Below, one piece after another: positions 4,344 to 43,090 of a stretch of DNA of 45,695 nt. A program made the translations under genes and the position numbers. The stretch's first letter is position 1. Each line of letters opens with the position of its first letter. The notes below the pieces were generated by a model, which was not told the DNA's origin, searched no databases, and worked only from the letters and a program-made list of their open reading frames with translations. The DNA comes from a virus. The stretch is taken from the IMG/VR virus record IMGVR_UViG_3300045988_144013. The stretch is one strand, 5' to 3'.

Positions 4344-4353
4344 GGTGGAGGAC

Positions 4354-5010: not shown

Positions 5011-5066
5011 AGTTGGAAGGTTTAGGGATTCATCAGTTAAATAAATTTTGAAAAGAGGAATTAAAA

Positions 5067-5324: not shown

Positions 5325-5345
5325 CGCAAAGTAAGTGGGCGCAAA

Positions 5346-8285: not shown

Positions 8286-8626
8286 TGAAAATTAAAGCAA
8301 CAACACCATGTTATAAATTCAGGGACGCAACACCGGAAGAGCAGATTGCAAAAATCAAAGAAGAACTGGCTGAGGTAGAAGCTGCTTACACAGAGTTTAA
8401 AAAAGTGTTGGCAGAAGATAAGCTGCTGGCGTTGATGATGGAGATTATCGACGTTAAGGCTTGCTGTAACACGTTTGTTTACCAGCTGCGGAAGAATCAT
8501 GCTTTGGCGTTTTTGGCTTATGCCAAAGCTAAGCGAGAAGTCATAAATAAAAATCTTGCAAGAGGGTACTACTTTACACCAGAAGATATTGACAAGCTGA
8601 ACACTAATAAGTCAGAACCGTTTTGA
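8285..8626 (+). CDS. MazG-like nucleotide pyrophosphohydrolase (tentative)
   Basis: KEELAEVEAA and MEIIDV resemble the MazG EExxE / ExxD metal-binding motifs. Confidence 0.4.
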   Translation: MKIKATTPCYKFRDATPEEQIAKIKEELAEVEAAYTEFKKVLAEDKLLALMMEIIDVKACCNTFVYQLRKNHALAFLAYAKAKREVINKNLARGYYFTPEDIDKLNTNKSEPF

Positions 8627-8653
8627 TATACAGTCAACTTTAGGAGGCAAGCA

Positions 8654-9421
8654 ATGAAAATAAAGACAGAATTTTATTGTGATAATTTTCAAAATTTTAA
8701 ACGGTATGGGATTCCCAAGGCACAGTTAGTAATTGCGGATATACCGTACAACCTTGGAGCAAATGCTTACGGATCTAATCCAATGTGGTATGTAGATGGC
8801 GATAATAAAAAAGGTGAAAGCAAATTTGCAGGTAAAGCTTTTTTCAATACAGATCATAATTTTAACATTGCAGAATACTTTCATTTTTGTAATCGCTTAT
8901 TAAAAAAAGAGCCTAAAGAAAAAGGGAAAGCTCCGTGCATGATAGTTTTTTGCTCATTTGAACAAATGCCGATGGTAATTCAGTATGCAGAAAAACATGG
9001 GTTTAAAAAACACATTCCTTTAATTTTCATCAAAAACTTTTCAGCACAGGTATTAAAAGCAAATATGCGTGTTGTTGGTGCTACTGAATACGCTTTGGTG
9101 TTATACAGGGAAAAACTACCGAAATTTAATAATAATGGAAAAATGATTTTTAATTGGTTTAACTGGGTAAAGGATACAAAAACATATCCTAAAATACATC
9201 CGACACAAAAGCCAGTTAATTTGTTGAAGCAGTTAATAACAATCTTTACAGACCCAAGTGACGTGGTTATAGATCCAGTAGCAGGGAGTGGGACAACATT
9301 AAGAGCGGCTATGGAATTAGGTAGAAACAGTTATGGATTTGAGTTATCTAAGGAGTTTTACAATAAAGCTAAAACCGAAATGCTCAAGCCGCAGAAATTT
9401 GAACAATTAGTTTGTTTTTAG
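8654..9421 (+). CDS. Orphan DNA methyltransferase (N6-adenine or N4-cytosine, beta class)
   Basis: Motif IV ADIPYN lies before motif I VIDPVAGSGTT. HPTQKP motif present. No adjacent restriction endonuclease. Confidence 0.85.
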   Translation: MKIKTEFYCDNFQNFKRYGIPKAQLVIADIPYNLGANAYGSNPMWYVDGDNKKGESKFAGKAFFNTDHNFNIAEYFHFCNRLLKKEPKEKGKAPCMIVFCSFEQMPMVIQYAEKHGFKKHIPLIFIKNFSAQVLKANMRVVGATEYALVLYREKLPKFNNNGKMIFNWFNWVKDTKTYPKIHPTQKPVNLLKQLITIFTDPSDVVIDPVAGSGTTLRAAMELGRNSYGFELSKEFYNKAKTEMLKPQKFEQLVCF

Positions 9422-11944: not shown

Positions 11945-12313
11945 ATGCGTGAAATATTATTTAGAGGTAAAGGAATAAATGATAAAGAATGGCGCTACGG
12001 CTTTTATACAGAACAGCAGGGATACCCTTACATAACACCGGATGGAGTGGCGATGTATGAAATTGACGCTAATACCGCAGGGCAGTATACAGGCTTTGTC
12101 GATAAAAATGGCAAGAAAATATTTGAGGGCGATATCGTCTGTATGGACGACTGGATACCCCCATGTATGCAGGTAGCTTATGCACAGGGAACTTTCTACT
12201 TAGCGGAAATTGAAAAACCAGTTAAATATTATGGTGACATTTATTATTTAAACCATGGTGGGAACCCTTGTGCAAAAGTTATCGGCAATATCTATGATGA
12301 TTTGAGCTACTAA
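11945..12313 (+). CDS. YopX family protein
   Basis: MREILFRGKG...EWRYGFY...QYTGFVDKNGKKIFEGDIV is the classic YopX N-terminus. Confidence 0.8.
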   Translation: MREILFRGKGINDKEWRYGFYTEQQGYPYITPDGVAMYEIDANTAGQYTGFVDKNGKKIFEGDIVCMDDWIPPCMQVAYAQGTFYLAEIEKPVKYYGDIYYLNHGGNPCAKVIGNIYDDLSY

Positions 12314-12330
12314 AGGAGCGGTGAATAAAA

Positions 12331-12471
12331 ATGGAAGAAGAACAATGCCCTTGTGATGATTGTGACGCTACCTGTGATTACTGGGACAGTAAATACTGCT
12401 GTATATATTGTCGTTGGCAGTATGGAGACATTGAACCTGACTGTGAGAATTGTGACCCGATGGATATTTGA
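12331..12471 (+). CDS. Small Cys-rich protein (46 aa, 11 Cys)
   Basis: RBS AAGGAG. Not in the ORF track. Confidence 0.45.
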   Translation: MEEEQCPCDDCDATCDYWDSKYCCIYCRWQYGDIEPDCENCDPMDI

Positions 12472-12489
12472 GAGGACGGTGAATAGATA

Positions 12490-12744
12490 ATGAGATTAAT
12501 AGATGCCGACGCCCTGCGTCGGCGGAAAGAGTTGCGATTCGGCTTAATGGCAGCAATCACTACTATTCAATTTTTAATAGACGAAGCCCCTACAGTAGAA
12601 GAACGTAAGCATGGGCATTGGGTAAGACATAATAATATCATTGCTTGCAGCGAGTGTATTTGGGATATGTATTGGGAGGAAGGAAATACAGAATTAAATT
12701 ACTGCCCAAATTGCGGGGCTATTATGAACGGTGAACCAGAATGA
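12490..12744 (+). CDS. Hypothetical protein with C-terminal zinc ribbon
   Basis: MRLIDADAL N-terminus. CSEC...CPNC. Confidence 0.55.
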   Translation: MRLIDADALRRRKELRFGLMAAITTIQFLIDEAPTVEERKHGHWVRHNNIIACSECIWDMYWEEGNTELNYCPNCGAIMNGEPE

Positions 12745-12986
12745 ACATACTAAAGTTAGAAAGATCAATAGCTTTATTAAAACCAATCATCTGGAAAATG
12801 CACATGAATGAAAAAAGGGATGCTTATATAACTTTATTGACAGCTGCTCAAAAACAGATACCACAGGAATTAAGTCCCTTGTTATCAGATGATGGTTTAC
12901 GTTGGAAATGCCCTGTGTGTGAGAAATTAGTAGATGACGCTGCTCATTATTGTAAATACTGCGGCCAAGCTATATGTAATGATTAA
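12741..12986 (+). CDS. Hypothetical zinc-ribbon protein
   Basis: CPVC...CKYC. ATGA overlap with the upstream gene. Confidence 0.5.
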   Translation: MNILKLERSIALLKPIIWKMHMNEKRDAYITLLTAAQKQIPQELSPLLSDDGLRWKCPVCEKLVDDAAHYCKYCGQAICND

Positions 12987-12997
12987 GGAGTGAAGAC

Positions 12998-13162
12998 ATG
13001 AATTATCCTGATCTAATAAAATGGATATTTGAATTTGTATATGAACATTGGATATTAACGTTTTTGTTTATATTAGCTTTAAGAAGGTTTAGTATTTTTA
13101 CAATAAATCTATCAGAGAAGAAGGGCGATACAAATGTTATTAACAATAGAAAGCAAGTTTAA
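12998..13162 (+). CDS. Possible small membrane protein (54 aa)
   Basis: RBS AAGGAG. One TM segment. Overlaps the next ORF by 29 nt. Confidence 0.25.
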   Translation: MNYPDLIKWIFEFVYEHWILTFLFILALRRFSIFTINLSEKKGDTNVINNRKQV

Positions 13163-13412
13163 TATAGGTGATAATGTACATTTGCCTAAGGGAGAACGTA
13201 AAGTACTTGGTGTTAAATTAGATTCTAAAGGTATCTTATATTTGCTTGAAAGTGCAGACGGTACGAGAGAATGGGTGCAAGAATATTGGGTTGTTATGGG
13301 CGAAGAAGAGCATAAACACGGAGAGTTTGAGGAGGCTATTTTGAACCAACTCATAGAAGACAACATAAATCCTTTTGGAGCATTATTTAGGCGATTAAAA
13401 AAGAAAAGCTAG
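13134..13412 (+). CDS. Hypothetical protein
   Basis: 92-aa ORF. Confidence 0.5.
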   Translation: MLLTIESKFNIGDNVHLPKGERKVLGVKLDSKGILYLLESADGTREWVQEYWVVMGEEEHKHGEFEEAILNQLIEDNINPFGALFRRLKKKS

Positions 13413-13424
13413 AAGGAGACTGAT

Positions 13425-13868
13425 ATGCTAATAGAACAGTATATTAAGCATGTAGAGCGGTACTTTTGGGATCGTAAGCAAATACAAAAAGTTGTTGATG
13501 AAGAAAAAGAGCAACGTACTGCAAGGAAAGGGCATACGGGCGGTGGGGGTCATGCTTTTATTAGTAATCCAACAGAAACAGCAGCATTAAAAAACATTGA
13601 GCCAGTACGTATGATATCGTTTGGATATGGACCATATCAGTCGATAATAATGAACCCGGAGCTATGGCTTGAAGTTGTCGCAGAAACCTATAAGATACAT
13701 GAGAATCAGCTTACTGGTAAAGTTATGTATCAAAAATATGAAAAAAGGAAGCCGATGAAAATAATTGCAGAATTAACCGGCGTAAATAGAGATACCTGTT
13801 ATGAATTTCGTAAGGAGTTTCTCCGAGATGCTGTTGGTTTGGCATTGAAAAAAGGTTTGATAAAATAA
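13425..13868 (+). CDS. Late-gene transcriptional regulator (RinA/ArpU-like, sigma-region-4-like C-terminus)
   Basis: Last gene before the packaging module. C-terminal HTH IIAELTGVNRDTCYEFRKEF. The late-promoter motif begins 6 bp after its stop. Confidence 0.6.
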   Translation: MLIEQYIKHVERYFWDRKQIQKVVDEEKEQRTARKGHTGGGGHAFISNPTETAALKNIEPVRMISFGYGPYQSIIMNPELWLEVVAETYKIHENQLTGKVMYQKYEKRKPMKIIAELTGVNRDTCYEFRKEFLRDAVGLALKKGLIK

Positions 13869-13873
13869 AAAAG

Positions 13874-13912
13874 TTTCCGACATATTACCTGTTTTGATGA
13901 GTTAAAATAGTA
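13874..13912 (+). promoter_or_regulatory. Late-promoter motif, copy A: TTTCCGACA-N16-GAGTTAAAATAGTA
   Basis: Same bipartite motif with identical 16-nt spacing at 37021 and 37112. Confidence 0.6.
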
Positions 13913-14151
13913 TTGTAAGTAAGTGGGCTTACAACAAAGCCCGTGTAGCTCAGACCACGGGTACGGCATAGATGGGGAACACCTATCCACGCTTAAAGGT
14001 GCGTGTGTTGTTTGGGTAATCCGGCAACTGCTCGACCCTGCCGTTGGGGTGATACAGCGGCATATTTAATCTACATAAATAATTTAGCCTTAAAAAGCCG
14101 ATAAAACACGGTAATATATATCAGAATTTAGCATATAGAATAAGAGGTGTG

Positions 14152-19276: not shown

Positions 19277-20281
19277 ATGGCAGTTTTAAATCAATTGGCA
19301 TATACCTTAGCTGATTGGAGGGGAAGACTTGACCCTTCCGGAAATGTAGATGATATTATTGAGGTATTGTCTCAATCTAATCCAATTTTAGAAGAAATGA
19401 CTTTTATGGAGGGCAATCTTCCTACTGGGATCGTGACTACTCAACGTACAAAAGTTCCTGAACCTTCTATCCGTCGTATCAATACTGGTGTTCCTTATAA
19501 AAAGAGCGGAGTAAAACAGATTAATGATACGACTACTTTATACGAAAATCGTAATAAGATGGATGTAGAGCTTTTGCGTTTGCAGAATGATCCTGCAGCT
19601 TTCCGTTATAGCGAGGATCTAGCATTTGTAGCCGGCTTTGGTGATCGTATTGCTAAAGATGTTATTTATGGCGGACTTAGCGAGGTTCCGGATGAATTTA
19701 ACGGGTTCGATATCAGACATCGTTATTTTGGCAATGGTGATGATCCGACGGCTGAAGGCTATACTACTCTTAATGCTGGCGGCGGTACCAAAAATACATC
19801 TATTTATTTTGTAAATTGGGGAGAACGTACATGCTCAGGCGTGTTCCCTAAAAATGGTAGTGCTGGTTTGAAGAAAGAAGATCTTGGACAACAAACTACA
19901 ATAGCGGATGACGGAACTGAATTTGAAGCTATGATTACGAAATGGACTTGGAATGTAGGCCTGACTATTCGTGATTATAGAGCTGTAGGAGCTATTCGCA
20001 ATATTGATGCAGCACAGTTTGCATCTGCAACTTCTGCTCAAAAGCAGAAGATTATTGAGAATGTTATTCGCGTTCATGACCGGTTGAGAAATCCTGACAG
20101 TGTTATGATGTACTGTTCTCGCAGCATGTATACTCTGTTCAAACTGTGCTTGATCGATAAAAATAACGTTCATGTTGAAATGGAAACGCTGGCCAATGGC
20201 ATTAAAGTATTAAATGTAGATGGTATGCGTGTACGTAAACTTGACTGCATTCGTGAAGACGAAGCTAAAATTGAAGCGTGA
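19277..20281 (+). CDS. Major capsid protein
   Basis: 334 aa, positioned after the scaffold. Strong RBS GAGAGGATGAATGAATAATG. Confidence 0.8.
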   Translation: MAVLNQLAYTLADWRGRLDPSGNVDDIIEVLSQSNPILEEMTFMEGNLPTGIVTTQRTKVPEPSIRRINTGVPYKKSGVKQINDTTTLYENRNKMDVELLRLQNDPAAFRYSEDLAFVAGFGDRIAKDVIYGGLSEVPDEFNGFDIRHRYFGNGDDPTAEGYTTLNAGGGTKNTSIYFVNWGERTCSGVFPKNGSAGLKKEDLGQQTTIADDGTEFEAMITKWTWNVGLTIRDYRAVGAIRNIDAAQFASATSAQKQKIIENVIRVHDRLRNPDSVMMYCSRSMYTLFKLCLIDKNNVHVEMETLANGIKVLNVDGMRVRKLDCIREDEAKIEA

Positions 20282-27839: not shown

Positions 27840-30800
27840 ATGGACGCAGCAAGAAAACAGGAATTAGATAACATCTTTAATAACGCATTAAAAGCCAGCA
27901 CTAATTATTCTATTCAAAATGCCTATTATGGCACTGACAGCGGAGTGGACCCTTTGTCTACACTTGGTTTTATTGATAAGCAAACCGGTTATGATGTGGA
28001 ATCTAAAATTACTACAGCACTTCTTAATGGTGCAAAATCCGGGATAAAAGGGTTATTGGCAAATGCAGGCGCAATGGTAGAAGAAAATATTGCAATACAT
28101 AAAAGGCAAGATCCCAATTATATACCGTATGGCGGCTATGCTCCGAAAATTGCAGAACAATTCAACAGTTTGGCAAACAGTGAGATTTTACAAAGGACTG
28201 ATGTGCGTAGCAGTAGCAAGCTGGGGCAGTTTGGGCTTGATTTTTTAGAGGGTGCAGGTCAATTTGTTCCGCAAATTGCAGTAACAGGATTAACTGGCGG
28301 TATAGGTGGCGGCATTTTTATGGGTATGTCTATTGCCGGCAACCAATATTCGGACTTGAGAGCGCAGGGCGTTGATGTAGAAACCGCTGCTAAAGCAAGT
28401 CGTTATAACGCTATTATACAGGCACCGCTGGAGCAGCTGGCGCTTGGTAAGGTTTTGGCGAGTCTGCCAGCAGGAAGTCCGTTAAAGAAGAGACTTGTTC
28501 GGTTATTAGAAAGTGCAATAACAGAAGGTGGGACAGAATTCATTCAAGAATTCCCTGAGCAGCTGACGAATATCTATGCCCAAAATCCAAATGCTGATGC
28601 TAAGCAAATTGCTACAGAATGGGACAAAAACTGGCAAGAAAATATTAAAAACGCAGGTTATAGTGGGTTGATCGGTGCCTTATTAGGCGTTGGAGCTAGT
28701 GGTGCTAAAATAGCGATTGACAGTATTGGTGAAAATGTTGATGCTGAAATACACAAAGAAAAACTAACTCAATTAGAAAATAATATCGAAAATGTTAAAA
28801 AAAGTGGAGTTAATCCGGAATATGCAGCGGGTGTTATTAATACGAATCGACCTTCTGATTTTATATCAATAGATGGGCAAAAGCTTCAGCAATATATGCA
28901 GGAGCAGGGAGCGGAAAAGATCACTCAAGCTTTGAATATTACAGAAGATGAAGTAAATGCTGCCGCCACTGATGGGTTGGACGTAGAAGTGCCTATAGGA
29001 GATTTTACGGCTGCCGCTTGTAAGTATGGCGATTTTTATAAAACTATGCAGGATCATATTTCTTTTGGAGATGGTGACTATAGTGTTAACGATAGAAAAT
29101 TAAAAAAGGATCTACGTAAAGCATATCAAATTTCAGAAAATGCCAGAGAAGAGCTGGATATAGAAGTTGATAAAATTGTGGAAAACTCTACAAATGCAAA
29201 AATGAACCAGGAAGAACGAGGAGCGTTGCGCGAATTTTTGGTCAGTCAGGCTATGATTGTTAATCCTGAAAATCCAGCGCAGTATTTCAGAGATCATCCA
29301 GTAGAAATAAAGCGTGTTGTCAGTACTCCTAAGGGCCGATATATGCAAACTAAAAGCGCTAACGAAAAATTGATTGAGGATGAAAGAAACTTTGCTGGCA
29401 TCGTAGATGAATATACTGCAGGGAAAATAAACGATACTAAAACTTATAATGTTATGACGACACCGCTTGCATTGGGTCTTGCAGGCGGTAAAATTTTGCC
29501 TGTAACTATCGACGGAAGCAAGATCAAACATATTTTTGACGGCCATTCCGATGGCATGACGCCGGAGCTGCTAAAACAAGTTCCACGTGCTATGGCTGAC
29601 CCGATGATGGTTTTAGATTCGTATGCTGGGCGTAAGGTTGTTGTATTAGACTTAAAGGATGCACAAGGGTCTACTATTATTCTTCCTTTAGAACTTGATG
29701 TTGAACGCAATCGTTATCAGGTGAATGCTGTCAGCAGTGCTTATGGGAAAGGTGGAGAAAATGGCACAGATTATGATTGGTTTATAGAGCACAATCTAAA
29801 AAAAGGTAGAGTGTCATATATAAATAAAGAAAAGACTGCCAAGTGGTTACAGTCTCCAGGCAGCGATTCCGCCAGCAGAGGTAACGACCTTGACAGTCTT
29901 CTTAATAATAGTATACCAGATGAAAATGCACTTCGCAAGAGACGAGAAGAAATGCAGGGATACTACCAGGCCGAAGGGAAAACTAAAGGTGCTATCACCT
30001 GGGACGAAGAAGGCAAAGCAATTATCAGCCTGTTTGAAGGTTCGGATGTGACAACAGTCTTCCATGAAACAGGACATTATTTTGTAGAGAATCTTGCGAA
30101 CGATGTAAATAGCGGGAAAGCAACCGAACAGCGACAAAAAGACTGGGAAACATTGCTGGACTATGCCGGAATAACTAATGAACAATGGCTTAATATGAGT
30201 ATAGATGAACGCCGGCCTGCTCATGAAAAATGGGCAGAGGGGTTTGAAACATATGTAATGGAAGGTAAGGCTCCGTCTCTTGCTCTGCGCCATGTTTTTG
30301 CAAAAATGGCGAAATGGATGAAGCGTGTTTATGAAAGTATTAGGCGTAATGAAAATGCTGCTCCGCTGACTGATGAAGTTCGGCAGGTCTTTGATCGTAT
30401 GCTTGCCAGTGAAGAGGAAATAAATACAATGTCCAGAGTAGATGGTTATTTTAATAAGCTTCCTTCTGTTATAACAGATAATCTTTCTGAGAGCTCTAAA
30501 ATCAGGCTTGAAAATTATATTGCTAAAGCAAGGGACGAAGCTGTAGATATTTTGACCAGGGAAAGTTTAAGGAATTTTACAAAAGAACGTCGTGTAGCGA
30601 TTGAGGACTTCAAAGATAAACTTCGTCCTGAAATCAGAACAGAAGTAGAGAAACAGCCTTTGTATGCTGCTGGACGAATGCTTGTTGATGATTTGCAGAA
30701 AAAACAAACAGCGAAAGGCGTTGCAGATTATTATCTTGGCTTAATTGCCAGAACTTTGGATATTGAAAGTAAACCTTTGAGCGAAGTAGAAGAGCTTGAT

Positions 30801-33800
30801 GTTATGAAGTTTGATATGATTGCTGAAGCTCAGGGCTTTAGCGGTGATGAGCTGGCAAAAAGGCTTATTGCCGAGCCTACGCTTGAACAGGCGATAGAGA
30901 GAGCCCTTGATAATGCGGTACAAGTAAAATTTCCTGATATTTATAAAGAACGCCAATTAGCGGAAGATGCGGCACGAGAAGCCATTTATAATGATGATAG
31001 CGGTCTGTTGATTGGTGTAGAACAACAGCTAATTGAAGATATGGCAGCGAATATCAATAATAAACAGCGTAGTACAGAACAGGCTCTTGCGCTTGCCCGA
31101 GCACGTAAGCAACAGGCTAAATTAGCAGCTAAAGCAGAAATCAGTAAAATGAGTATGAGTAATGCTTTGAAAACGGGCAGGTTTGTTATGGCAGAACGTC
31201 GTGCTGCAGCACAGGCGGCGAAAGCTATAAAAGCTAAGAGTTTTGAAGAAGCGGCAGATTATAAAAGACAGCAGGCTTTTAACCATGCTTTGGTATTGGA
31301 AAGTTTAAAAATGAAGCAGGAAAAAAGCAGAGCTGAAAAATTTTTAAAACGCCAGTTTAAGGCAAAAAAAGAAACGTGGGAAGATGAAAAGCACTTTACA
31401 CAAGCAGCTGCCATTATGGAAAGGATGGGATTAAAACGCAAGGATTATGATCCTGCACTCAGAAAACAATCTTTAATAGAGTATGCAGAAGAAATGCAGG
31501 AACAATATGATAATGTTGCTATTGCCGACTGGCTTATGGATGAAGGGACGTCTTTAGACAATCCTGCCGCAATGACTTTTGAACAACATCAGGATGTTAT
31601 CAATGCTTTGAAAAATATTAAAGCAATCGTTAAACAGGAAAAATATGTAACCTGGTACGGTAAGGAATTGAATTATAAGGAATTCAAGGACGAGGCTATT
31701 AGGAATCTTTTGAAACTAAAAACAAAATGGCAATCTGGTATCAATTCCAAAGAAAAGGCTAAGCCAAGTCAGAGATTTTTTAGAAACCTTACAAATACTG
31801 ATAATTTCTTTGAGCGGATGGATGGCTGGAAATATGGATTTTTCAGTAAACATTTTGGCGAAAGCGGACAAATTGCAGCTAATAAAAAAGCTGCATATAC
31901 AATGGAGTTTGAAGAACGTATTGCTGACGCTACTAAAAAATGGCTGCCGGATAAAAAGGCTGCGGAAGCAGCAGATAAAGAAATTTATTACGAACCATTT
32001 AAGGCCTCATTAACAAAACATAATATTATAAAGATGCTATTGTATTTAGGCTCGGAAAGCAGTTCGTATAAATTGTGTTCAGTTGGGCCTAACAGTACTT
32101 ATGCAACATTTTTCCGAGGCTCTGAGTTGTGGGTTGAAGGTGATCTTGAACAGACGAGAAGCAATTTGCTTGAGGCTTTAGGCAACGTTTTAACAGAAGC
32201 TGATATTCGTTACGCGGAGGAAATTTCCGCTGCTTGTAGCGCTCACTGGAATGAACTTTCGGATATGGTAAAAAGAACGACTGGTTTCTCGCCTGAGAGA
32301 GTTGATGCTATGCCAGCAGAACTTACTTTGCGTAATGGAGCTAAAGTTGTTTTCCGTGGTGGGTACATTCCGTTAGTAAGATATACTGACGGTGGCAGTC
32401 ATCCTGCTACGTCGGATGCCGTTCCGGCAACAAGCGATAAGCGTGCTGTAAACAGTATTAGAACACTGCATACAAATACCGGTGGAACCAAAGCACGTGA
32501 TAGAAGTGTATATCCGTTGGATTTAAGAAAAGGCGCTGAGTACTCTGCAGTTATGGATAATATACATGATCTATGCTATAGAGAACTAGCTACAAGCTAT
32601 CGTAAAATGTTGAATGATCCTGAAATGTATTCTTTGCTGAAAGAAAAATTAGGTATTGCGAATTTTGAAGCGTTTACAGAATACTTAAAGAAAACGGCAC
32701 AGCCTTATGACGGTGGTTACGCTTCAATCAGTGAAAGAGATGCAGGGACTTGTTTGAGCTGGATACGCCAAAAGGCAGTCAATGTAGCAATAATGCTTAA
32801 CTTCAAAACTGCTGTCCAAAACTTGGGAAATCCGTTGTTATATGGTAATGTTGTTGAAGGCTTTGGTTATAAGGACGTAATGGCCGCTTATGGAAATTTG
32901 TTTTTGAATATGCAAAAAGGGCAAGGATGGAAAGCTTCCAAAGAACTTGTTTATTCTAAATCATCTTATATGAAAGAGCGTTCTGTATTGCCGGATATTT
33001 CATTGCGGGATATGAAAGACGAGAGTAGAAAACTGAATCCAGTTGAGCAGGTTACAGTTGAATTTGGTACAAAAGCATTGGTGTTTACCGATAATTTATC
33101 AGCTATTCCTGTTTGGATACAGGCGTATCAAAAGAAAATCAATGTCGGAGTCAGCGAACAGGAAGCCGTGCTATTTGCGGATACTGTTATTAGGCGTACA
33201 CTTGGCAGCAGCCGTATTACAGATGTTGCACCTATTCAGCGTGGCAGCGCACTCATGAAATTATTTACAACATTCCAGGGCTTTTTCAATACGCAGTTCA
33301 ATCAATGGCAAAGAGAAGCTGGAATTTTTGGCCGTGAGTGGAGTGCCGGAAGGAAAGTTGAAGCATCTAAGCGAATAGTTGCTTTTGCAGCGGCTAAGTA
33401 TTTTATGTTTTGCCTGCTGAATTTGGCTTTTGCATTAGAACCGCCTTTTGAAGAAGACGATGATGAATGGACAAAATATGGTAAAGAGCTTTTGCAGTAT
33501 CCTATGAGTTTGCTAGGACCTGTTGGGCAGGTTGCCAATACTCTTGTTAGCAATATGGTCGGAATGCGAACCTATGGCTATAGGATGACTGCAGTACAAG
33601 GTTCTATCGAACAAGCGGAGCGTACAGTAAAGAAAATAAGCAGTGTACAAAAAGGCAATGCTGAACCAGAAGAACTGATTGAGCCTTTAGCTAATCTCGG
33701 TGGTCTTATCGCTGGTGTGCCGGCGCAGTTCAATAAATTGTTTTTTAACGCTTATGATATTGTTGTAAATGATATGGAGCCTCAGTGGGGCGATATCTAC

Positions 33801-33827
33801 AGACGCAGACCAAAAAAAGAACGGTAA
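27840..33827 (+). CDS. Giant polyvalent internal virion / DNA-ejection protein (1995 aa)
   Basis: N-terminal glycine-zipper TM region. Central KHIFDGHSDGMTPELL module (phage MuF/PBECR-like). HETGH zinc-peptidase motif at 30063-30077. Long coiled coils. C-terminal TM segments. Confidence 0.7.
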   Translation: MDAARKQELDNIFNNALKASTNYSIQNAYYGTDSGVDPLSTLGFIDKQTGYDVESKITTALLNGAKSGIKGLLANAGAMVEENIAIHKRQDPNYIPYGGYAPKIAEQFNSLANSEILQRTDVRSSSKLGQFGLDFLEGAGQFVPQIAVTGLTGGIGGGIFMGMSIAGNQYSDLRAQGVDVETAAKASRYNAIIQAPLEQLALGKVLASLPAGSPLKKRLVRLLESAITEGGTEFIQEFPEQLTNIYAQNPNADAKQIATEWDKNWQENIKNAGYSGLIGALLGVGASGAKIAIDSIGENVDAEIHKEKLTQLENNIENVKKSGVNPEYAAGVINTNRPSDFISIDGQKLQQYMQEQGAEKITQALNITEDEVNAAATDGLDVEVPIGDFTAAACKYGDFYKTMQDHISFGDGDYSVNDRKLKKDLRKAYQISENAREELDIEVDKIVENSTNAKMNQEERGALREFLVSQAMIVNPENPAQYFRDHPVEIKRVVSTPKGRYMQTKSANEKLIEDERNFAGIVDEYTAGKINDTKTYNVMTTPLALGLAGGKILPVTIDGSKIKHIFDGHSDGMTPELLKQVPRAMADPMMVLDSYAGRKVVVLDLKDAQGSTIILPLELDVERNRYQVNAVSSAYGKGGENGTDYDWFIEHNLKKGRVSYINKEKTAKWLQSPGSDSASRGNDLDSLLNNSIPDENALRKRREEMQGYYQAEGKTKGAITWDEEGKAIISLFEGSDVTTVFHETGHYFVENLANDVNSGKATEQRQKDWETLLDYAGITNEQWLNMSIDERRPAHEKWAEGFETYVMEGKAPSLALRHVFAKMAKWMKRVYESIRRNENAAPLTDEVRQVFDRMLASEEEINTMSRVDGYFNKLPSVITDNLSESSKIRLENYIAKARDEAVDILTRESLRNFTKERRVAIEDFKDKLRPEIRTEVEKQPLYAAGRMLVDDLQKKQTAKGVADYYLGLIARTLDIESKPLSEVEELDVMKFDMIAEAQGFSGDELAKRLIAEPTLEQAIERALDNAVQVKFPDIYKERQLAEDAAREAIYNDDSGLLIGVEQQLIEDMAANINNKQRSTEQALALARARKQQAKLAAKAEISKMSMSNALKTGRFVMAERRAAAQAAKAIKAKSFEEAADYKRQQAFNHALVLESLKMKQEKSRAEKFLKRQFKAKKETWEDEKHFTQAAAIMERMGLKRKDYDPALRKQSLIEYAEEMQEQYDNVAIADWLMDEGTSLDNPAAMTFEQHQDVINALKNIKAIVKQEKYVTWYGKELNYKEFKDEAIRNLLKLKTKWQSGINSKEKAKPSQRFFRNLTNTDNFFERMDGWKYGFFSKHFGESGQIAANKKAAYTMEFEERIADATKKWLPDKKAAEAADKEIYYEPFKASLTKHNIIKMLLYLGSESSSYKLCSVGPNSTYATFFRGSELWVEGDLEQTRSNLLEALGNVLTEADIRYAEEISAACSAHWNELSDMVKRTTGFSPERVDAMPAELTLRNGAKVVFRGGYIPLVRYTDGGSHPATSDAVPATSDKRAVNSIRTLHTNTGGTKARDRSVYPLDLRKGAEYSAVMDNIHDLCYRELATSYRKMLNDPEMYSLLKEKLGIANFEAFTEYLKKTAQPYDGGYASISERDAGTCLSWIRQKAVNVAIMLNFKTAVQNLGNPLLYGNVVEGFGYKDVMAAYGNLFLNMQKGQGWKASKELVYSKSSYMKERSVLPDISLRDMKDESRKLNPVEQVTVEFGTKALVFTDNLSAIPVWIQAYQKKINVGVSEQEAVLFADTVIRRTLGSSRITDVAPIQRGSALMKLFTTFQGFFNTQFNQWQREAGIFGREWSAGRKVEASKRIVAFAAAKYFMFCLLNLAFALEPPFEEDDDEWTKYGKELLQYPMSLLGPVGQVANTLVSNMVGMRTYGYRMTAVQGSIEQAERTVKKISSVQKGNAEPEELIEPLANLGGLIAGVPAQFNKLFFNAYDIVVNDMEPQWGDIYRRRPKKER

Positions 33828-33836
33828 GAATAAAAA

Positions 33837-33897
33837 AACTGGCAACGATTTCTCAAGGGACGAAATCCCAATGTTGAAAAAGTTGCCAGTTTTTTAT
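33837..33897. terminator. Bidirectional terminator between convergent genes
   Basis: AACTGGCAAC / GTTGCCAGTT, with an A-run before and T6 after. Inner hairpin GATTTC/GAAATC. Confidence 0.65.
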
Positions 33898-33920: not shown

Positions 33921-34301
33921 TTAGAAGAAAAATTTATGGGAATGACATTGTTCATATATTTTTCTTATTTCCCAATTAGAAATATTATAGCCATGTAGTC
34001 GTTTATTGTGGAAAACCAACATAAATAAAAACCAAAAAAATGGCAAAATGAATCCTAGATAGGCATTATAAGAATAAATACCAGTTATGTATGGTATAAA
34101 ATATATTGTCGCGATAATTAGTCCGAGAGCAACAAATACATTTTCAATTAATTTTATAATTAGCAAATATAAAGTAAAAGCAATTAAAGTAATAATTCCG
34201 CATTGAAGTTTAAGTATTATTGAACCTTCACGACCCATTCCGATTGCAAATATAGAAAGCCATACACATAATCTTCCCATATCGTCATTAAATTTATCCA
34301 T
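33921..34301 (-). CDS. Four-TM membrane protein; candidate superinfection-exclusion protein (SieA position)
   Basis: 126 aa, very hydrophobic, low-GC codons. Own TG-extended -10 (TGATATAAT) and RBS AGGAG. Confidence 0.6.
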   Translation of the reverse strand: MDKFNDDMGRLCVWLSIFAIGMGREGSIILKLQCGIITLIAFTLYLLIIKLIENVFVALGLIIATIYFIPYITGIYSYNAYLGFILPFFWFLFMLVFHNKRLHGYNISNWEIRKIYEQCHSHKFFF

Positions 34302-34370
34302 ACCAATACTCCTAAAATAAGCATATTATTGACTGTTTTTCATAATTATATCACATTTATAAATGAAAAT

Positions 34371-34392
34371 AAAACAGCCCGTAGGCTGTTTT
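34371..34392 (-). terminator. Terminator after the XRE gene
   Basis: AAAACAGCC-CGTA-GGCTGTTTT, symmetric hairpin. Confidence 0.6.
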
Positions 34393-34396
34393 AAAG

Positions 34397-35101
34397 TTAA
34401 GATTTATTAAGGTATTCTTCTATGAATTTATTCAAGTCATTATCTTGATTGTCTACTATTATATATAAATCATCAATAATAGAATGTTTTTTTGAATCTG
34501 TAATGAATTTAAACTGACCTGAAATAAAAGCAAAAAGTCCGATTACGACTTCACTGTCTCTGAAAAATTTGAAAAGCAAATAACCATTCTGTGAAATAGG
34601 ATCAATTGCGGTGAAATATGATTCCTGTTCTAAAAAATCATAATCATTAAATTGAGGGAAAAAGCTCAAAATAAAATCATTTATGATTGGATGTGTTGAA
34701 TTAAAATGTTTGTTTTTATCCAAAGAAACCGGATTTCCATTGTCATCCAAAACCATTATTTCTTCTTTTAAGTCTTCTGGTATCTTTTTTATGAATGGAA
34801 CACTTTCAACTTTAGGGAAGATATCCCAGTGAACCAAAGAATTCTGTGTATCGTATATTAGTTTTTCTACTAATTTATAGACTTTAGAGTCAGACTTTGA
34901 TTGAGTATCTAAAAGCAGATAATCTAAAGTTACATTAAATAATTCTACAAGTTTTTTTAATAATTCTGGATCGCTAGGAATACTTTTTCCCGTTTCGTAG
35001 TAACTAACAATTCTCGAGGATACTCCTAACTTTGTGGCTAAATCTTTTTGGGTCATACCCTTGGCTTCACGGAGTTTCTTTAGATTTTCACTGAAAGACA
35101 T
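34397..35101 (-). CDS. XRE-family HTH regulator with an unknown 165-aa C-terminal domain (Mnt-position repressor)
   Basis: LREAKGMTQKDLATKLGVSSRIVSYYETGK. Start reset to MSFSEN. Divergent from the RHH/antirepressor operon. Low GC. Confidence 0.75.
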   Translation of the reverse strand: MSFSENLKKLREAKGMTQKDLATKLGVSSRIVSYYETGKSIPSDPELLKKLVELFNVTLDYLLLDTQSKSDSKVYKLVEKLIYDTQNSLVHWDIFPKVESVPFIKKIPEDLKEEIMVLDDNGNPVSLDKNKHFNSTHPIINDFILSFFPQFNDYDFLEQESYFTAIDPISQNGYLLFKFFRDSEVVIGLFAFISGQFKFITDSKKHSIIDDLYIIVDNQDNDLNKFIEEYLNKS

Positions 35102-35180
35102 ATTAATCACCACCTAAAGCAATTATAACAATAAGAACCATAAGACACAATATTTTTCTCGAAAAACATCAAGACGTATA

Positions 35181-35209
35181 TTGACATAACTAACGTATTA
35201 CGTTAAAAT
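35181..35209 (+). promoter_or_regulatory. Promoter TTGACA-N17-TAAAAT with an embedded 15-bp perfect palindrome TAACGTATTACGTTA
   Basis: Consensus -35. The palindrome 35191-35205 spans the spacer and -10. 33 nt before the RHH gene. Confidence 0.65.
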
Positions 35210-35241
35210 TAAAAGTAACAAACGAGAAAGGAGTATTAAAG

Positions 35242-35412
35242 ATGAGGCCAACAATTGATTTTAAAGGTGATCTTGGAGCAGTACTTAGATACCACTGTAC
35301 AAAAGTGGGCATTAGTATTGCTGGCTATGTCAAGGGGTTAGTGTATGATGATTTGTTAAAGAAGTATCCTAACTTACTTGATGAAACAAAAAAAGAAACT
35401 ACCATCAAATAG
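35242..35412 (+). CDS. Arc/Mnt-like ribbon-helix-helix protein (56 aa, tentative)
   Basis: N-terminal beta-strand-like TIDFKGDL followed by two helices. RBS AAAGGAG. Not in the ORF track. Confidence 0.45.
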   Translation: MRPTIDFKGDLGAVLRYHCTKVGISIAGYVKGLVYDDLLKKYPNLLDETKKETTIK

Positions 35413-35471
35413 TTCTTGGCGGAACAATGGTAGTTTCATAATGAAAGAATGTTCAAGATAAACATCATTCT
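35388..35471 (-). ncRNA. Candidate antisense small RNA, about 84 nt (sar-like position)
   Basis: Minus-strand promoter TTGAAA-N17-TAAACT (complement of 35478-35506). 11-bp perfect hairpin 35395-35405 / 35427-35437, followed on the minus strand by T7. Confidence 0.4.
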
Positions 35472-35531
35472 TTTAACAGTTTATCATATATTGAACATTC
35501 TTTCAAATTAAAATTGAAAGGATGTATTTTT

Positions 35532-36263
35532 ATGAAAAACGAACTGAAGATTTTTGAAAACGAAGCTTTTGGTAAAGTTAGAATAATTGAAAAAAATAAT
35601 GAGCCGTGGTTTGTAGGCAAAGATGTTGCTGATATTTTGGGGTATAAAAATGGCAGCCGTGATATTAACGTCCATGTTGATGAAGAAGATAGGCTAAAGT
35701 ACCAAATCCGTACCGCAGGTCAAGCGAGAGAGCAGACACTTATTAACGAAAGCGGATTATACTCATTGATTCTATATAGTAAGCTACCTGCCGCAAAGAA
35801 ATTCAAACGCTGGGTAACAAGCGAAATACTTCCTGCGATTCGCAAAACTGGGTCGTATTCTGTAAATCAGGATATAAAAGCTAGAGAAGTAGAAGCTCGC
35901 TTAAATAACAGCCGGGCAAGAGTTGCATCGACATTCCTTAAAGTTGCTCAAATGACTGATCTGCTAGAATATAAGCATATATGTCAGCAGAAAGCAGCAG
36001 AGGTTTTAAGTGGTTTACCGTTACTACCAATGGAAGAAGCTAAAGAAATTACTTATTCAGCAACAGATATAGGGAAAATGCTTGGAGTATCGGCAAATAA
36101 AATAGGTAAGATAGCCAATCAGCATAATCTTAAAACGCCGCAGTATGGAAAGTTATTTTACAGCAAATCGGAACATAGTTGCAAAGAAGTAGAAACATTC
36201 CGTTACTACGAATGCGCCATTCTAAAATTCAGAGAAATTCTGAAAGGTGGTGTGGTGGCATGA
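35532..36263 (+). CDS. BRO-N domain antirepressor
   Basis: LKIFENEAFGKVRII...EPWFVGKDVADILGY...INESGLYSLILYSKLPAAKKFKRWVTSEILPAIRKTGSY. Start reset to MKNELK. Confidence 0.85.
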   Translation: MKNELKIFENEAFGKVRIIEKNNEPWFVGKDVADILGYKNGSRDINVHVDEEDRLKYQIRTAGQAREQTLINESGLYSLILYSKLPAAKKFKRWVTSEILPAIRKTGSYSVNQDIKAREVEARLNNSRARVASTFLKVAQMTDLLEYKHICQQKAAEVLSGLPLLPMEEAKEITYSATDIGKMLGVSANKIGKIANQHNLKTPQYGKLFYSKSEHSCKEVETFRYYECAILKFREILKGGVVA

Positions 36264-36472
36264 ACTTGACAGATGCTATTAAATTAGCTGGATATCAGGA
36301 AGTGCCATTCTACAATCAAGAAGTTATAAAAGGGTTAAATGATATAGTGGAGTGTGAAAAACGGAAAAGCAGCTATAACGATTTACCTTTTGCGGCGTGT
36401 TTGAGTGGTTACTTGTATGGAGTTACGCAAGGCGTTCGTAAAGAACGGCAAAGAAGAAAAAATGCCCGGTAA
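36260..36472 (+). CDS. Hypothetical protein (70 aa)
   Basis: ATGA overlap with the antirepressor stop. Start reset to MNLTDAIK. Confidence 0.5.
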   Translation: MNLTDAIKLAGYQEVPFYNQEVIKGLNDIVECEKRKSSYNDLPFAACLSGYLYGVTQGVRKERQRRKNAR

Positions 36473-36499
36473 AGGGATTGAAATAGTTTTTGAATAATG

Positions 36500-36566
36500 A
36501 AAAAAAGAAACACCCGCTTTCCGTGGAAAGATGCGCGAGTGTTTCTTGTGACCAGCCGAAGCTGAT
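36500..36566 (-). ncRNA. Candidate antisense small RNA, about 67 nt
   Basis: Minus-strand promoter TTGATA-N17-TATACT (complement of 36573-36601). Hairpin AGAAACAC / GTGTTTCT (36506-36546), followed on the minus strand by T6-7. Confidence 0.35.
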
Positions 36567-36613
36567 AACAATAGTATAGCAGTTTTCGGCTGGTATATCA
36601 AGGAGGATATACC

Positions 36614-36823
36614 ATGAACGGAAACAGGTCGTCGTGTCCTGACGAAGAAAAAAGGGCATTGGAGAAATTTGTCGAAGTTGTAAGAAGCACATCTCAAGAA
36701 GAATTTGCAAGAAAATATATAAATGAAGATAGTGATAAAATGACAGAGACAAAAAGCGAGATCTCCACCGCTGATAGAAAAGAAGTAAAAGAACAAATCA
36801 AAGGCGGTGTAAATAATGAATAA
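36614..36823 (+). CDS. Hypothetical protein
   Basis: 69-aa ORF. The RBS AAGGAG sits in the loop of an 8-bp hairpin. Confidence 0.45.
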   Translation: MNGNRSSCPDEEKRALEKFVEVVRSTSQEEFARKYINEDSDKMTETKSEISTADRKEVKEQIKGGVNNE

Positions 36824-37016
36824 AGTGCGGAAATCATTTAGGGAGCTGTTGAACAAATTGTCTCCGGCGCAGCTTGAAGAAGTAGCAGCCATAGCATATG
36901 AGATAAAGAAAGAACGTGAATCGTCGTCGAAGGTAGTTCGGTTTATGGATAAGTCCAGCCAGCGTTGTTATGATCAGGGGTATAAGCTTGGTCTGATGTT
37001 AGGAAATAAATTTTAA
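36816..37016 (+). CDS. Hypothetical protein
   Basis: 66-aa ORF overlapping the upstream stop. Confidence 0.45.
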   Translation: MNKVRKSFRELLNKLSPAQLEEVAAIAYEIKKERESSSKVVRFMDKSSQRCYDQGYKLGLMLGNKF

Positions 37017-37020
37017 AAAG

Positions 37021-37059
37021 TTTCCGACAAAATGCCATTTAACAAGAGTTAAAATAGTA
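37021..37059 (+). promoter_or_regulatory. Late-promoter motif, copy B
   Basis: TTTCCGACA-N16-GAGTTAAAATAGTA, both boxes identical to copy A. Confidence 0.6.
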
Positions 37060-37111
37060 ATGTAAGGTTATTGGATATGAGAGCAGAGGCGGTGTTAAAA
37101 AATTAAAAATG

Positions 37112-37150
37112 TATCCGACAAAACCACTATAAAAATGAGTTAAAATAGTA
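37112..37150 (+). promoter_or_regulatory. Late-promoter motif, copy C
   Basis: TATCCGACA-N16-GAGTTAAAATAGTA, 91 bp downstream of copy B. Confidence 0.6.
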
Positions 37151-37178
37151 TCATAAAGTTAGTTAGAACTTAATAGAA

Positions 37179-37210
37179 AGCGCTTACTTCGGTAGGCGCT
37201 TTTTTATTTG
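37179..37210 (+). terminator. Terminator with UUCG tetraloop, family member 3
   Basis: AGCGCTTAC-TTCG-GTAGGCGCT followed by TTTTTATTTG, which runs straight into the tail-fibre RBS GGAAGGAGGG. Confidence 0.7.
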
Positions 37211-42847: not shown

Positions 42848-43090
42848 ATGGATAATTGCCGATTGCAGGCAAGAGATTGGCTTTCTCGATCTACCCGTAA
42901 GGAATTTGAAGCAATAATCCAGGAAGCCAAGTTAACGCCACGGCAGATGGAAATTATTGAACTGAAGTTTATTCACGATCTCAAAAATTATCAAATAGCA
43001 ATGCGAATAGATACGTCAGTGCAAACGGTCGAAAGAGATTTGCGGCAGGCGTATAATTCGGTTAAGAGAGTATTAAAGGCGGTCACATGA
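42848..43090 (+). CDS. Sigma-70 region-4-like small HTH regulator
   Basis: LTPRQMEIIELKFIHDLKNYQIAMRIDTSVQTVERDLRQA. Confidence 0.6.
   Translation: MDNCRLQARDWLSRSTRKEFEAIIQEAKLTPRQMEIIELKFIHDLKNYQIAMRIDTSVQTVERDLRQAYNSVKRVLKAVT

Follow-up and report, generated by a model that had tools for sequence, protein, structure and literature searches.

A putative mobile antirepressor cassette with phage P22 immI-like layout in a prophage assigned to Phascolarctobacterium faecium

The immI region of phage P1 gates ant by means of an antisense RNA, c4. In that of P22, Ant inactivates the c2-type prophage repressor by binding to it, and Mnt is needed for lysogeny to be maintained. In Salmonella phage P22, the annotated record places between gene 16 and gene 9 (both rightward) the leftward gene sieA with its own promoter, the leftward genes orf59a and mnt with a terminator, the overlapping promoters Pant and Pmnt with the operators Oarc and Omnt, the rightward gene arc (53 amino acids, aa), the leftward sar RNA of 70 nucleotides (nt), the rightward gene ant and a terminator; sar has its promoter within ant and its terminator across the end of arc. 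This region relies on read-through from Plate, and the 'ant moron' of P22-like phages is in rapid flux, with ten types in sixteen genomes (PMC2629481). Here we describe a region with the same order and orientation of elements at positions 33,921-37,016 of a 45,695-nt virus sequence, IMG/VR record IMGVR_UViG_3300045988_144013 (the whole of which is referred to below as the window), where it lies between the gene for a 1995-aa ejection protein and the tail-fibre genes.

Dual control by a protein and an RNA is also described for plasmids. In pMV158, the ribbon-helix-helix (RHH) protein CopG acts together with RNAII, a countertranscript made from the copG-repB spacer, and repB follows (PMC4485353). 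The countertranscript of pT181 binds an upstream arm so that a terminator forms (PMC3753616), and attenuation in pIP501 adds a small helix-turn-helix (HTH) repressor, CopR (PMC4981023). The Gifsy antirepressors GfoA, GfhA and GftA drive prophage induction, according to the account that PMC7067206 gives of Lemire et al. 2011.

The island comprises two leftward genes, for a membrane protein (TM126) and an XRE-type repressor, and five rightward open reading frames (ORFs): orf56, the Bro-N gene BRO, orf70, orf69 and orf66 (Table 1). The initial annotation of the window had called this arrangement syntenic with P22 sieA-mnt-arc-ant; all seven of the ORFs that it listed are present in the ORF map, and gene order and orientation match the annotated P22 record element for element. 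We propose, at a probability of roughly 0.55, that the region is a composite accessory island, consisting of a TM126 moron and a mobile antirepressor cassette with immI-like layered control. The best model, by analogy, is one in which the logic of P22 immI would be run by a mechanism like that of pMV158 or pT181.

Mobility of the cassette and its antirepressor-type payload

The window is 99.6% identical to two related loci, L001 and L003, up to position 34363 and 96% identical again from 36999; because identity resumes there, 34364-36998 constitutes a 2.6-kb indel between near-identical phages. This segment holds the terminator of the XRE gene, the XRE gene itself, orf56, BRO, orf70, orf69 and orf66. 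The core of XRE, orf56, BRO, orf69 and orf66 is very common, 795 index blocks listing the orf56 cluster. In podovirus-type prophages the cassette always follows a MuF_C protein, and the leftward cargo beyond XRE is variable (223 aa; 94, 136 and 189 aa; DUF805 with TM126; 159 aa; 271 aa). Diverged XRE relatives, 42-48% identical, are found inside the tail modules of P2-like myoviruses in the same host species, where they sit between gpD-like and PAAR/gpU/gpW/baseplate-J genes with a payload of orf56, BRO and orf69 (L114) or of Rha and two small ORFs (L116-L119). A metagenome scan revealed a further copy, apparently from a higher-GC background, which keeps the whole design with ~30% XRE identity, a 41%-identical orf56 homologue and BRO. 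On the evidence of these alignments, the cassette at 34364-36998 is a mobile module, and it is with the divergent antirepressor operon, rather than with the membrane protein, that XRE is constantly paired. As the cassette is mobile, the slot that it shares with P22 is not inherited synteny.

The slot itself was surveyed in 80 loci encoding relatives of the C-terminus of the ejection protein. In about 55 of the 80, a clade at 44-49%, the fibre gene begins ~140 bp after the stop codon of the ejection gene and the slot is otherwise empty, the ~140-bp gap containing a promoter-like element and then a strong hairpin with a T-run; in another dozen the slot is taken up by one leftward ORF for a 116-aa membrane protein. 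Large inserts are limited to the closest relatives and differ in content among these: TM126 alone (L001); TM126 with a 287-aa membrane protein (L003); DUF805, TM126, XRE, orf56, BRO and Rha/KilAC (L006); leftward membrane proteins, a 58-aa RHH-like ORF, Rha, BRO, orf69 and orf66 (L005 and L008); and a 170-aa leftward ORF, a 66-aa RHH-like ORF, Rha and Rha with KilAC (L004). Judged from gene order and signals, the slot is both a boundary between two late transcription units and an insertion hotspot. Separately, the P2-like myovirus L119 carries two antirepressor cassettes, 3992-6041 and 8101-9212, at two tail-gene junctions; one consists of XRE and Rha, the other of a 61-aa RHH ORF and BRO without XRE, its promoter being flanked by TGGTAATCA direct repeats.

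The BRO protein contains a Bro-N domain over residues 21-107 (E=4.6e-29) and aligns along its whole length with PHROG Ant families (1e-61 to 1e-70; phrog_7940, 1e-69; phrog_130, 4e-61), and its earlier designation as a BRO-N antirepressor-like gene is thus borne out at the level of family. With both Bro-N and the C-terminal region of the family it falls among the Bro-N/Ant-like proteins (PF02498; PHROG 130, 463, 2899, 7940). Translation starts at the ATG at 35532, as in the homologues, which begin MKNELKIFEN. The ORF previously given as 'orf97' is most likely, from its sequence, the 70-aa ORF starting at 36260 (orf70), which would be translationally coupled to BRO; it has no family match, and no ORF is called there in B-type relatives. 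The orf69/orf66 module accompanies BRO in most versions of the cassette and its region shows 97.5% DNA identity to L005/L008 from 36500; neither protein has a family match in Pfam or PHROGs.

An ordinary patchwork of morons in a permissive gap between operons that gathers selfish or accessory genes, without any role in immunity, would fit a slot that is hypervariable and empty in most relatives and a cassette that is an indel between near-identical phages. BRO and Rha would then be DNA-binding proteins acting in some other way, such as by modulating transcription or replication or as toxins, and the likeness to immI would be a coincidence; TM126, orf70, orf69 and orf66 lack a known family, and the source annotation of the exact BRO sequence includes 'toxin Bro', Bro-N being a broad family. 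We nevertheless consider this explanation unlikely. The repressor, the small ORF, the antisense unit and the Shine-Dalgarno (SD) switch described below are kept in eight versions, with BRO and with Rha payloads, and control that is kept in eight versions with two types of payload therefore points to a tightly gated regulator rather than a passive passenger. The full-length Ant matches argue in the same direction, as do the gathering of several antirepressor types (Rha, BRO and Rha with KilAC) in the same slot and the lack of a self-cleavage domain in the primary repressor of the phage.

Predicted antisense RNA, bistable leader and divergent promoters

The spacer between orf56 and BRO was compared in sequence versions named A, B, B', C, C', D, E, F/G and H, the first two of which came from an alignment of orf56-BRO spacers, and very different sequence types were found to keep the same elements. 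In each of eight versions, promoter and terminator signals, both leftward, delimit a predicted RNA of 66-90 nt. The promoter reads TTGAAA-17-TGnTAnAnT in versions A-E and consists of the extended -10 only in F and H (TGATATAAT or TGCTATAAT); the extended -10 (TGn) is always present, at the same place relative to the anti-SD arm in 8/8 versions. When 1.96 Mb were searched on both strands for a composite motif, a promoter regular expression with a terminator 40-140 nt downstream, 38 of the 42 matches were this element in front of BRO or Rha genes. The predicted antisense RNA 1 of the window folds with z=-5.0 relative to dinucleotide shuffles. Its terminator hairpin overlaps the 3' end of orf56 and persists in version C, where a 6-codon ORF replaces orf56; in the stem, 98.9% of cells are paired, and types A and B differ by three compensatory pairs. 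Because an A-run precedes it, this hairpin should terminate leftward transcription only.

The leader of BRO can be drawn in two mutually exclusive ways. Arm I, an SD mimic, and arm III, the anti-SD, form a 19-bp helix; alternatively, arm III pairs with arm IV in a 12-bp hairpin at 35495-35525, which buries the SD GAAAGGATG and is followed by AUUUUUAUG. The leader folds with z=-4.3 relative to dinucleotide shuffles, and in six versions the two folds lie 3-6 kcal/mol apart. In versions A-E, <=1% of 500 shuffles attain the observed energy of the I:III pairing, even though the arms of different versions are unrelated in sequence; the pairings of the SD hairpin were judged by structure-aware duplex tests.

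These inverted repeats could instead be DNA operators, bound by dimers of orf56, XRE or BRO, or plain terminators, in which case control would lie in transcription only, without an antisense RNA. In favor of this, the DNA of the SD hairpin is almost perfectly palindromic around 35510, hexamers resembling promoters are no more frequent in this AT-rich DNA than expected by chance, and the Rfam scan returned nothing at gathering score, its two sub-threshold matches being noise. We regard this explanation as quite unlikely, however, since the three-way complementarity of mimic, anti-SD and SD is kept with different sequences in each version, which an operator would not need. In addition, the hairpin at the end of orf56 carries a U-run on the minus strand only, shows compensatory changes and outlasts the loss of orf56 in version C, and the invariant placing of the extended -10 of the leftward promoter against the anti-SD likewise favors an RNA.

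The leftward XRE repressor and the divergent consensus promoter with candidate palindromic operator named in the initial annotation were both recovered. The XRE ORF (238 codons) matches HTH_3 at E=1.5e-15, and its start is likely the ATG at 35101, behind the SD AGGTGGTG, giving a protein of 234 aa. In its AlphaFold2 (AF2) model, with a predicted local distance difference test (pLDDT) score of 72, the HTH alone matches structures in the PDB (ImmR, SinR, and the 434 and P22 c2 repressors); the C-terminal domain has no PDB fold match and was found in just 7 clusters of 1.84e9 in an exhaustive search. Against species-representative genomes the protein gave HTH-level matches only, and its recognition helix is nearly invariant across its narrow family. 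The -35 and extended -10 of its candidate promoter are conserved with a variable spacer, equivalents being found in L116 and L204; the promoter scan missed it because its -35 matches at 3/6 positions only. The rightward promoter has the best score of that scan (11/12). Candidate operators are GACGTATA, abutting the -35, and the perfect palindrome AACGTAtTACGTT within the spacer (35192-35204). This palindrome is unique in the window, a 13-mer match with 2 mismatches alone not being above chance, and ACGTAT motifs 19 nt apart are kept where XRE is merely 30-48% identical. An HTH_3 repressor gene adjoining a divergent promoter with repeated putative operator motifs would place the protein with the XRE/Cro-C1 regulators, and XRE may be seen as an analogue of Mnt.

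Between the divergent promoter and the leader lies orf56, which has no family match in Pfam or PHROGs and none by phmmer against the PDB. Its AF2 model (pLDDT 60.5) has low-confidence helices at residues 11-22 and 26-41, and its Foldseek list is mostly RHH proteins including Arc, topped by ParG at E=1.4, with all entries at E>=1.4. A homologue at 41% identity occurs in L202-L204, and a profile including the 41%-identical homologue finds the ParG RHH domain at a mere E=1.2. In relatives L004, L005, L008 and L119 a 58-66-aa ORF in the same position is a CopG-like RHH protein, with a profile E=0.009 to pRN1 ORF56; alignment of orf56 with the RHH profile of these relatives by hhalign gave a probability of 0.1-0.2%. 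The RHH-like label of the initial annotation has hints in its favor, and an RHH fold for orf56 is possible. The gene is frameshifted by one extra T in L091 (1357-1515), where the other parts of the cassette are intact, and is absent from the Rha versions L116-L119, so that orf56 appears dispensable in some cassettes.

Taken together, these elements suggest the following model. In the lysogen, XRE would be made leftward from its own promoter and would bind the ACGTA-type operators in and next to the rightward promoter, keeping it off as Mnt does in P22. Once repression is lifted, the rightward promoter would drive orf56, BRO, orf70, orf69 and orf66, and orf56, represented by an RHH ORF in relatives, would probably feed back on this promoter. 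A ~85-nt antisense RNA would start at about 35471 in the orf56-BRO spacer and end at the hairpin and U-run over the 3' end of orf56. By pairing with arm I it would leave arm III free to close on the SD arm, hiding the ribosome-binding site (RBS), and in versions A and B transcription would probably end at the SD hairpin with AUUUUUAUG as well. If no antisense RNA is present, arm I would hold the anti-SD and BRO would be translated. BRO would then inactivate an HTH repressor non-covalently, leading to induction or anti-immunity, with either the phage's own 131-aa cI-like protein or the repressors of co-resident prophages as its target. The cI-like protein is without an S24 domain, and antirepressor-driven induction is known for phages in this situation, Gifsy being an example (PMC7067206).

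More speculatively, a self-contained cassette may hop between the late-operon boundaries of podovirus-like and P2-like prophages in one gut species, with BRO and Rha as interchangeable payloads. It would then represent a convergent immI built on Gram-positive plasmid antisense logic and serve as a currency of induction and anti-immunity among co-resident prophages, the XRE C-terminal domain being a new induction sensor; we put this extended version forward tentatively and hold it to be possible rather than probable.

Several observations weigh against the proposed model of immI-like control. The direction of the switch is ambiguous, since the SD is buried in the minimum free energy fold of versions A, B and D but free in that of B', C and C'. 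The U-run 3' of the SD hairpin is present in versions A and B and absent in version C, arms III and IV pair weakly in B' and their pairing in D and E escaped the automatic test, and the I:III pairing is not significant in version F. Many of the counted loci are near-duplicates, so the independent evidence amounts to about eight versions, some of them related by descent. The promoter scan was at chance overall (17 found against 16.4 expected), for which reason support for the sites is drawn from conservation in relatives, and the operator palindrome is imperfect in L006, L091 and L114. The antisense RNA, its ends and its effect are sequence-based predictions; 'antirepressor' is likewise an annotation of BRO, Bro-N being a heterogeneous family of DNA-binding proteins. 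orf56 shows no significant similarity to RHH proteins and has a low-confidence model. Lastly, the near-identical L001 and L003 are without the cassette, which is therefore non-essential for the phage.

The membrane protein, late transcription and the host

Table 1. Positions of genes and predicted signals in and around the island (window coordinates)
Feature	Position	Strand	Description
Terminator-like hairpin, left border	33833-33895	both	20-bp inverted repeat, 90% complementary, flanked by A-run and T-run
TM126	33921-34301	-	126 aa, 3-4 transmembrane segments; position of sieA
TM126 promoter	34345-34353	-	extended -10 TGATATAAT, then SD AGGAG
XRE terminator	34370-34393	-	intrinsic, 10-bp stem then T-run; parts XRE from TM126
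XRE repressor gene	34397-35101 (ORF to 35113)	-	234 aa; N-terminal HTH at residues 1-65, beta-rich orphan C-terminal domain
XRE promoter (candidate)	35122-35150	-	TTGTGT-17-TGtTATAAT; predicted transcription start about at SD
Rightward promoter	35174-35209 (hexamers 35181-35209)	+	TTGACA-17-TAAAAT
orf56	35242-35412	+	56 aa; position of arc / copG
Antisense RNA 1 (predicted)	35386-35471	-	~85 nt; 5' stem-loop, terminator hairpin 35396-35436, U-run 35395-35386
Antisense RNA 1 promoter	35478-35506	-	TTGAAA-17-TGaTAAACT; -35 is the reverse complement of the anti-SD core CTTTCAA
Bistable leader of BRO	35442-35525	+	arm I 35442-35460, arm III 35487-35505, arm IV 35511-35525
BRO	35532-36263	+	Bro-N protein, 243 aa (ORF 249 codons); annotated antirepressor; cassette payload
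orf70	36260-36472	+	ATGA overlap with BRO stop
Second antisense unit (predicted)	36495-36601	-	promoter TTGATA-17-TGcTATACT 36601-36573; hairpin 36505-36547, minus-strand T-run
orf69 and orf66	36614-37016	+	overlapping small ORFs
Right border	37008-37209	+	two tandem late-promoter-like repeats (TCCGACA-N20-TAAAAT), then terminator hairpin 37175-37209

TM126 has three strong hydrophobic spans and one weaker span at the N-terminus, so that the description of a four-segment membrane protein in the initial annotation stands for three segments and is weak for the fourth. The protein is an ORFan, with one 94%-identical cluster as its sole homologues and no family match in Pfam, PHROGs or PADLOC. It was considered as a homologue of SieA and rejected, there being no significant similarity to P22 SieA. 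Its promoter lies inside the block that is 99.6% identical to L001 and L003, both of which carry TM126 without the XRE gene. Because of its own extended -10 promoter, the intervening terminator and its presence without XRE in these two loci, TM126 is, by sequence comparison, a stand-alone moron and a unit separate from the cassette. From these signals it is probably expressed from the prophage; a role in exclusion would be a guess.

The GC content of TM126 is 27.0% and that of the XRE gene 29.1%, compared with 35-41% in other parts of the island, 39.6% in the window and 40.4% in the ejection gene. The leftward pair is thus more AT-rich than its neighbors, as was first noticed, but the further suggestion that the two genes were acquired together did not survive, since TM126 has its own promoter and occurs without XRE in 99.6%-identical phages. 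The low GC of both genes, the small membrane protein downstream of XRE and the fact that XRE HTH proteins regulate many defense systems might point to a defense, abortive-infection or toxin-antitoxin-like module, the rightward genes being unrelated neighbors. We judge this very improbable, since PADLOC matched the HTH of XRE only (RmrA, CapH and control proteins) and nothing in TM126, orf56, BRO, orf70, orf69 or orf66. A terminator and a separate promoter also lie between XRE and TM126, TM126 occurs without XRE in L001 and L003 while XRE occurs elsewhere with wholly different leftward cargo, and it is the divergent antirepressor operon that stays with XRE. A known anti-phage defense system was rejected on the same grounds, the PADLOC matches being confined to the XRE HTH with no other component.

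At the left border of the island, the inverted repeat is terminator-like and, by its sequence, is taken to end both the ejection-gene transcript and the leftward TM126 transcript. The hairpin and U-run at the right border, just 5' of the SD of the fibre gene, fold with z=-3.6, and this border region is 98% identical to the DNA upstream of the L004 Rha/KilAC gene. The late-promoter-like motif AAAAAGTwTCCGACA-N20-TAAAAT occurs three times in the window, at 13870-13912, 37015-37070 and 37106-37161, with the core GAGTTAAAATAGTA exact in 3/3; the copy at 13877-13912 heads the terminase/structural block and the two tandem copies precede the tail-fibre genes. Its N20 spacing is at odds with sigma-70. 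An 80-aa protein encoded at 42848-43090, which consists of sigma-70 region 4 only (PF08281, 2.8e-8) and is kept in relatives, is a candidate for the late activator. Promoter and then terminator are likewise found at the island-less junctions of L020, L045, L071 and L078. The pair resembles lambda pR'-tR' and by analogy suggests that the late genes are under antitermination.

The first late-promoter copy is separated from the packaging block's first ORF by a 230-nt GC-rich untranslated leader (13920-14150) of moderate structure (z=-2.1) and with no Rfam match. A 52-aa ORF (MDKEAIIQDQINLLLEEQKK...) stands directly 5' of the fibre gene in many relatives (L004, 14234-14392; L005, 15373-15531; L008, 15222-15380) and is absent from the window, the fibre module of which is of a different type (28% identity). 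The second predicted antisense unit, upstream of orf69, has its -35 overlapping the orf69 SD region and comprises a 5' stem-loop and a 13-bp terminator hairpin with U-run; its 78-nt fold gives z=-6.8, and the unit has no diverged copies.

The window is an integrase-to-lysis prophage, with a tyrosine integrase and a 131-aa cI-like HTH protein at one end and the lysis genes at the other. In between lie terminase, a 600-aa portal protein, the major capsid protein and a 968-aa tail protein, 3' of which are the internal virion proteins of 211, 693 and 1995 aa, the last of these being confirmed 5' of the island at 27840-33827; 3' of the island, the N-terminal domain of the tail fibre matches phrog_1640 at 1.5e-16. 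By tblastn the 1995-aa protein shows only 21-25% identity, to BPP-1-like, Vibrio and Caulobacter podophages. Its homologues carry MuF_C, to which some loci (among L081, L084 and L123) add ART-PolyVal or LPD38. The ~2000-aa ejection protein is polyvalent, and its toxin/effector modules differ among relatives such as L081, L084 and L123. Because of the resemblance to podophage proteins and the MuF_C/ART-PolyVal/LPD38 domains of the homologues, it is a reasonable inference that the phage is podovirus-like and that the 1995-aa protein is an ejected polyvalent protein.

Phascolarctobacterium faecium is the annotated source of the exact portal sequence, of close members of the integrase cluster and of an autotransporter gene that adjoins a related locus. 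On the strength of these portal, integrase-cluster and neighboring host-gene annotations, the host is P. faecium, a diderm Negativicute of the human gut; the initial placement in Bacillota was correct at the level of phylum. The exact BRO (35532-36263) and major-capsid (19277-20281) sequences are also filed under Bacteroides uniformis (RGV36501.1, RGV36511.1). As portal, integrase and neighboring host genes point to P. faecium, these entries are probably a mis-binned or contaminating contig in that assembly. The GC content of the P. faecium host genome is 43.4-44.0% (PMC7283042). A literature search on prophages of P. faecium found no paper, DNA comparison with INPHARED gave no related phage but only Bro-N segment matches at 66-75%, and a search for tRNA and att clues found none.

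In the primary region (1541-2070), the cI-like gene, whose 131-aa product contains an HTH only, faces a gene for a DUF739 Cro-like protein across a TTGACT-17-TATAAT promoter containing CTTAAG-N4-CTTAAG. A domain search found no self-cleaving Peptidase_S24 domain in either the primary cI-like protein or the XRE protein of the island. Operators common to the two regions were not found, the ACGTA motifs being unrelated to CTTAAG-N4-CTTAAG, and operator comparison within the window gave no evidence of cross-regulation between the island and the cI/cro region. Among BRO-containing contigs, which the comparison of repressor type with antirepressor type covered, one and the same cI (97-99% identical) accompanies three cassette versions. 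In L086, the tail-fibre and lysis genes are parted by an additional tyrosine integrase of 299 aa together with a 169-aa ORF (12086-13488), an insert that is perhaps a small element lodged in the late region.

Significance and comparison with known systems

How SOS-independent prophages of abundant gut anaerobes decide on induction is largely unknown, and the phages of Negativicutes are almost unstudied. If the model is right, the cassette would provide a testable induction or anti-immunity switch for a prophage lineage that is very common in the human gut, its portal protein being found on >1000 contigs. It would also show clearly how the immI architecture, together with its antisense RNA, can evolve convergently from unrelated proteins, with the regulatory cassette itself as a unit of horizontal exchange between phage morphotypes. 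The natural twins with and without the cassette (the window and L001/L003) would be ready isogenic controls, and a compact unit of promoter, antisense RNA and SD switch in eight orthogonal versions could interest RNA-circuit engineers, who use pT181-type attenuators (PMC3753616).

The likeness to P22 immI extends to location, 3' of the last ejection gene and 5' of the gene for the tail fibre or tailspike, and to the leftward genes, that for the membrane protein having its own promoter and that for the repressor a terminator. Both regions have divergent promoters with operators (here candidates) in the ant promoter or its counterpart and a first gene for ~55 aa (56 here, 53 in P22), followed by an antisense RNA of 70-90 nt (here predicted) whose terminator lies over the 3' end of the small gene, and then by a gene of antirepressor type. 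At the level of sequence signals, sar-like antisense elements thus occupy the junction of the small gene and the antirepressor-type gene, which carries the analogy beyond that drawn in the initial annotation. Content is in flux in both, with at least six slot contents in the lineage of the window. The initial annotation had counted absence or variability in close relatives against its own reading; the island is variable, yet the analogy is not thereby refuted, because the P22 'ant moron' is equally variable.

The proteins, by contrast, are unrelated in family, as was first supposed and as searches with hidden Markov models and BLASTP agree. XRE is an HTH protein with an orphan domain and Mnt an RHH protein (PF03869, PF11423); BRO has Bro-N and Ant the P22_AR domains (PF10547, PF10548), the two giving E=20 in BLASTP; and orf56 does not align with Arc (PF03869). 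The divergent promoters lie back to back here, ~30 bp apart, whereas those of P22 overlap, and Psar lies inside ant with sar covering the ant RBS, whereas here the antisense promoter is upstream of the SD and the RNA would leave the RBS uncovered, acting through the switch of SD mimic, anti-SD and SD. Terminators shield the island from late transcription and late-promoter copies of its own come after it, and the cassette also occurs in myovirus tail modules, in a Negativicute host. That the region was inherited from an ancestral podovirus as a genuine but deeply diverged homologue of P22 immI is hardly credible: slot, order and orientation of all elements agree, and the internal and ejection proteins of this podovirus-like phage have distant relatives in podoviruses that infect Gram-negative hosts, but no protein pair is detectably similar, the families differ (HTH and RHH; Bro-N and P22_AR_N/C), the slot is empty in most relatives of the lineage and the cassette moves between podovirus-type and myovirus-type prophages. 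Of the two origins first offered, convergent or deeply diverged, it is therefore the former that holds, and the resemblance to immI is, as far as sequence comparison goes, one of analogy.

The lack of a self-cleavage domain in the primary repressor, combined with an antirepressor gene located elsewhere under its own repressor, recalls Gifsy, 186 Tum and P1 Ant. In Gifsy and 186 the antirepressors are LexA-controlled, whereas here control would fall to the dedicated XRE protein and no LexA-type box was identified. The P1 c4 RNA differs in being processed from the sense transcript rather than made as a convergent countertranscript.

With pMV158 the cassette shares the series of promoter, small gene (here putatively for a repressor), countertranscript-encoding spacer and payload gene. 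In both, the countertranscript (here predicted) is complementary to the DNA just 5' of the translation signals of the payload and has its own intrinsic terminator, and the small gene is a CopG-like RHH gene in relatives L004, L005, L008 and L119. Unlike pMV158, the payload is of antirepressor type, not a replication initiator, the predicted RNAs measure 66-90 nt compared with 48 nt for RNAII, and there is an additional divergent XRE repressor and an explicit leader with alternative pairings. This leader is closest to pT181 and pIP501: two mutually exclusive folds are found, the upstream arm holds the 5' half of the terminator hairpin, and a countertranscript directed against the upstream arm would be expected to release a hairpin and U-run just before the gene. 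The hairpin of the cassette differs from theirs in containing the SD and abutting the start codon, so that it is no less likely to occlude translation than to terminate transcription, and its U-run is missing in version C.

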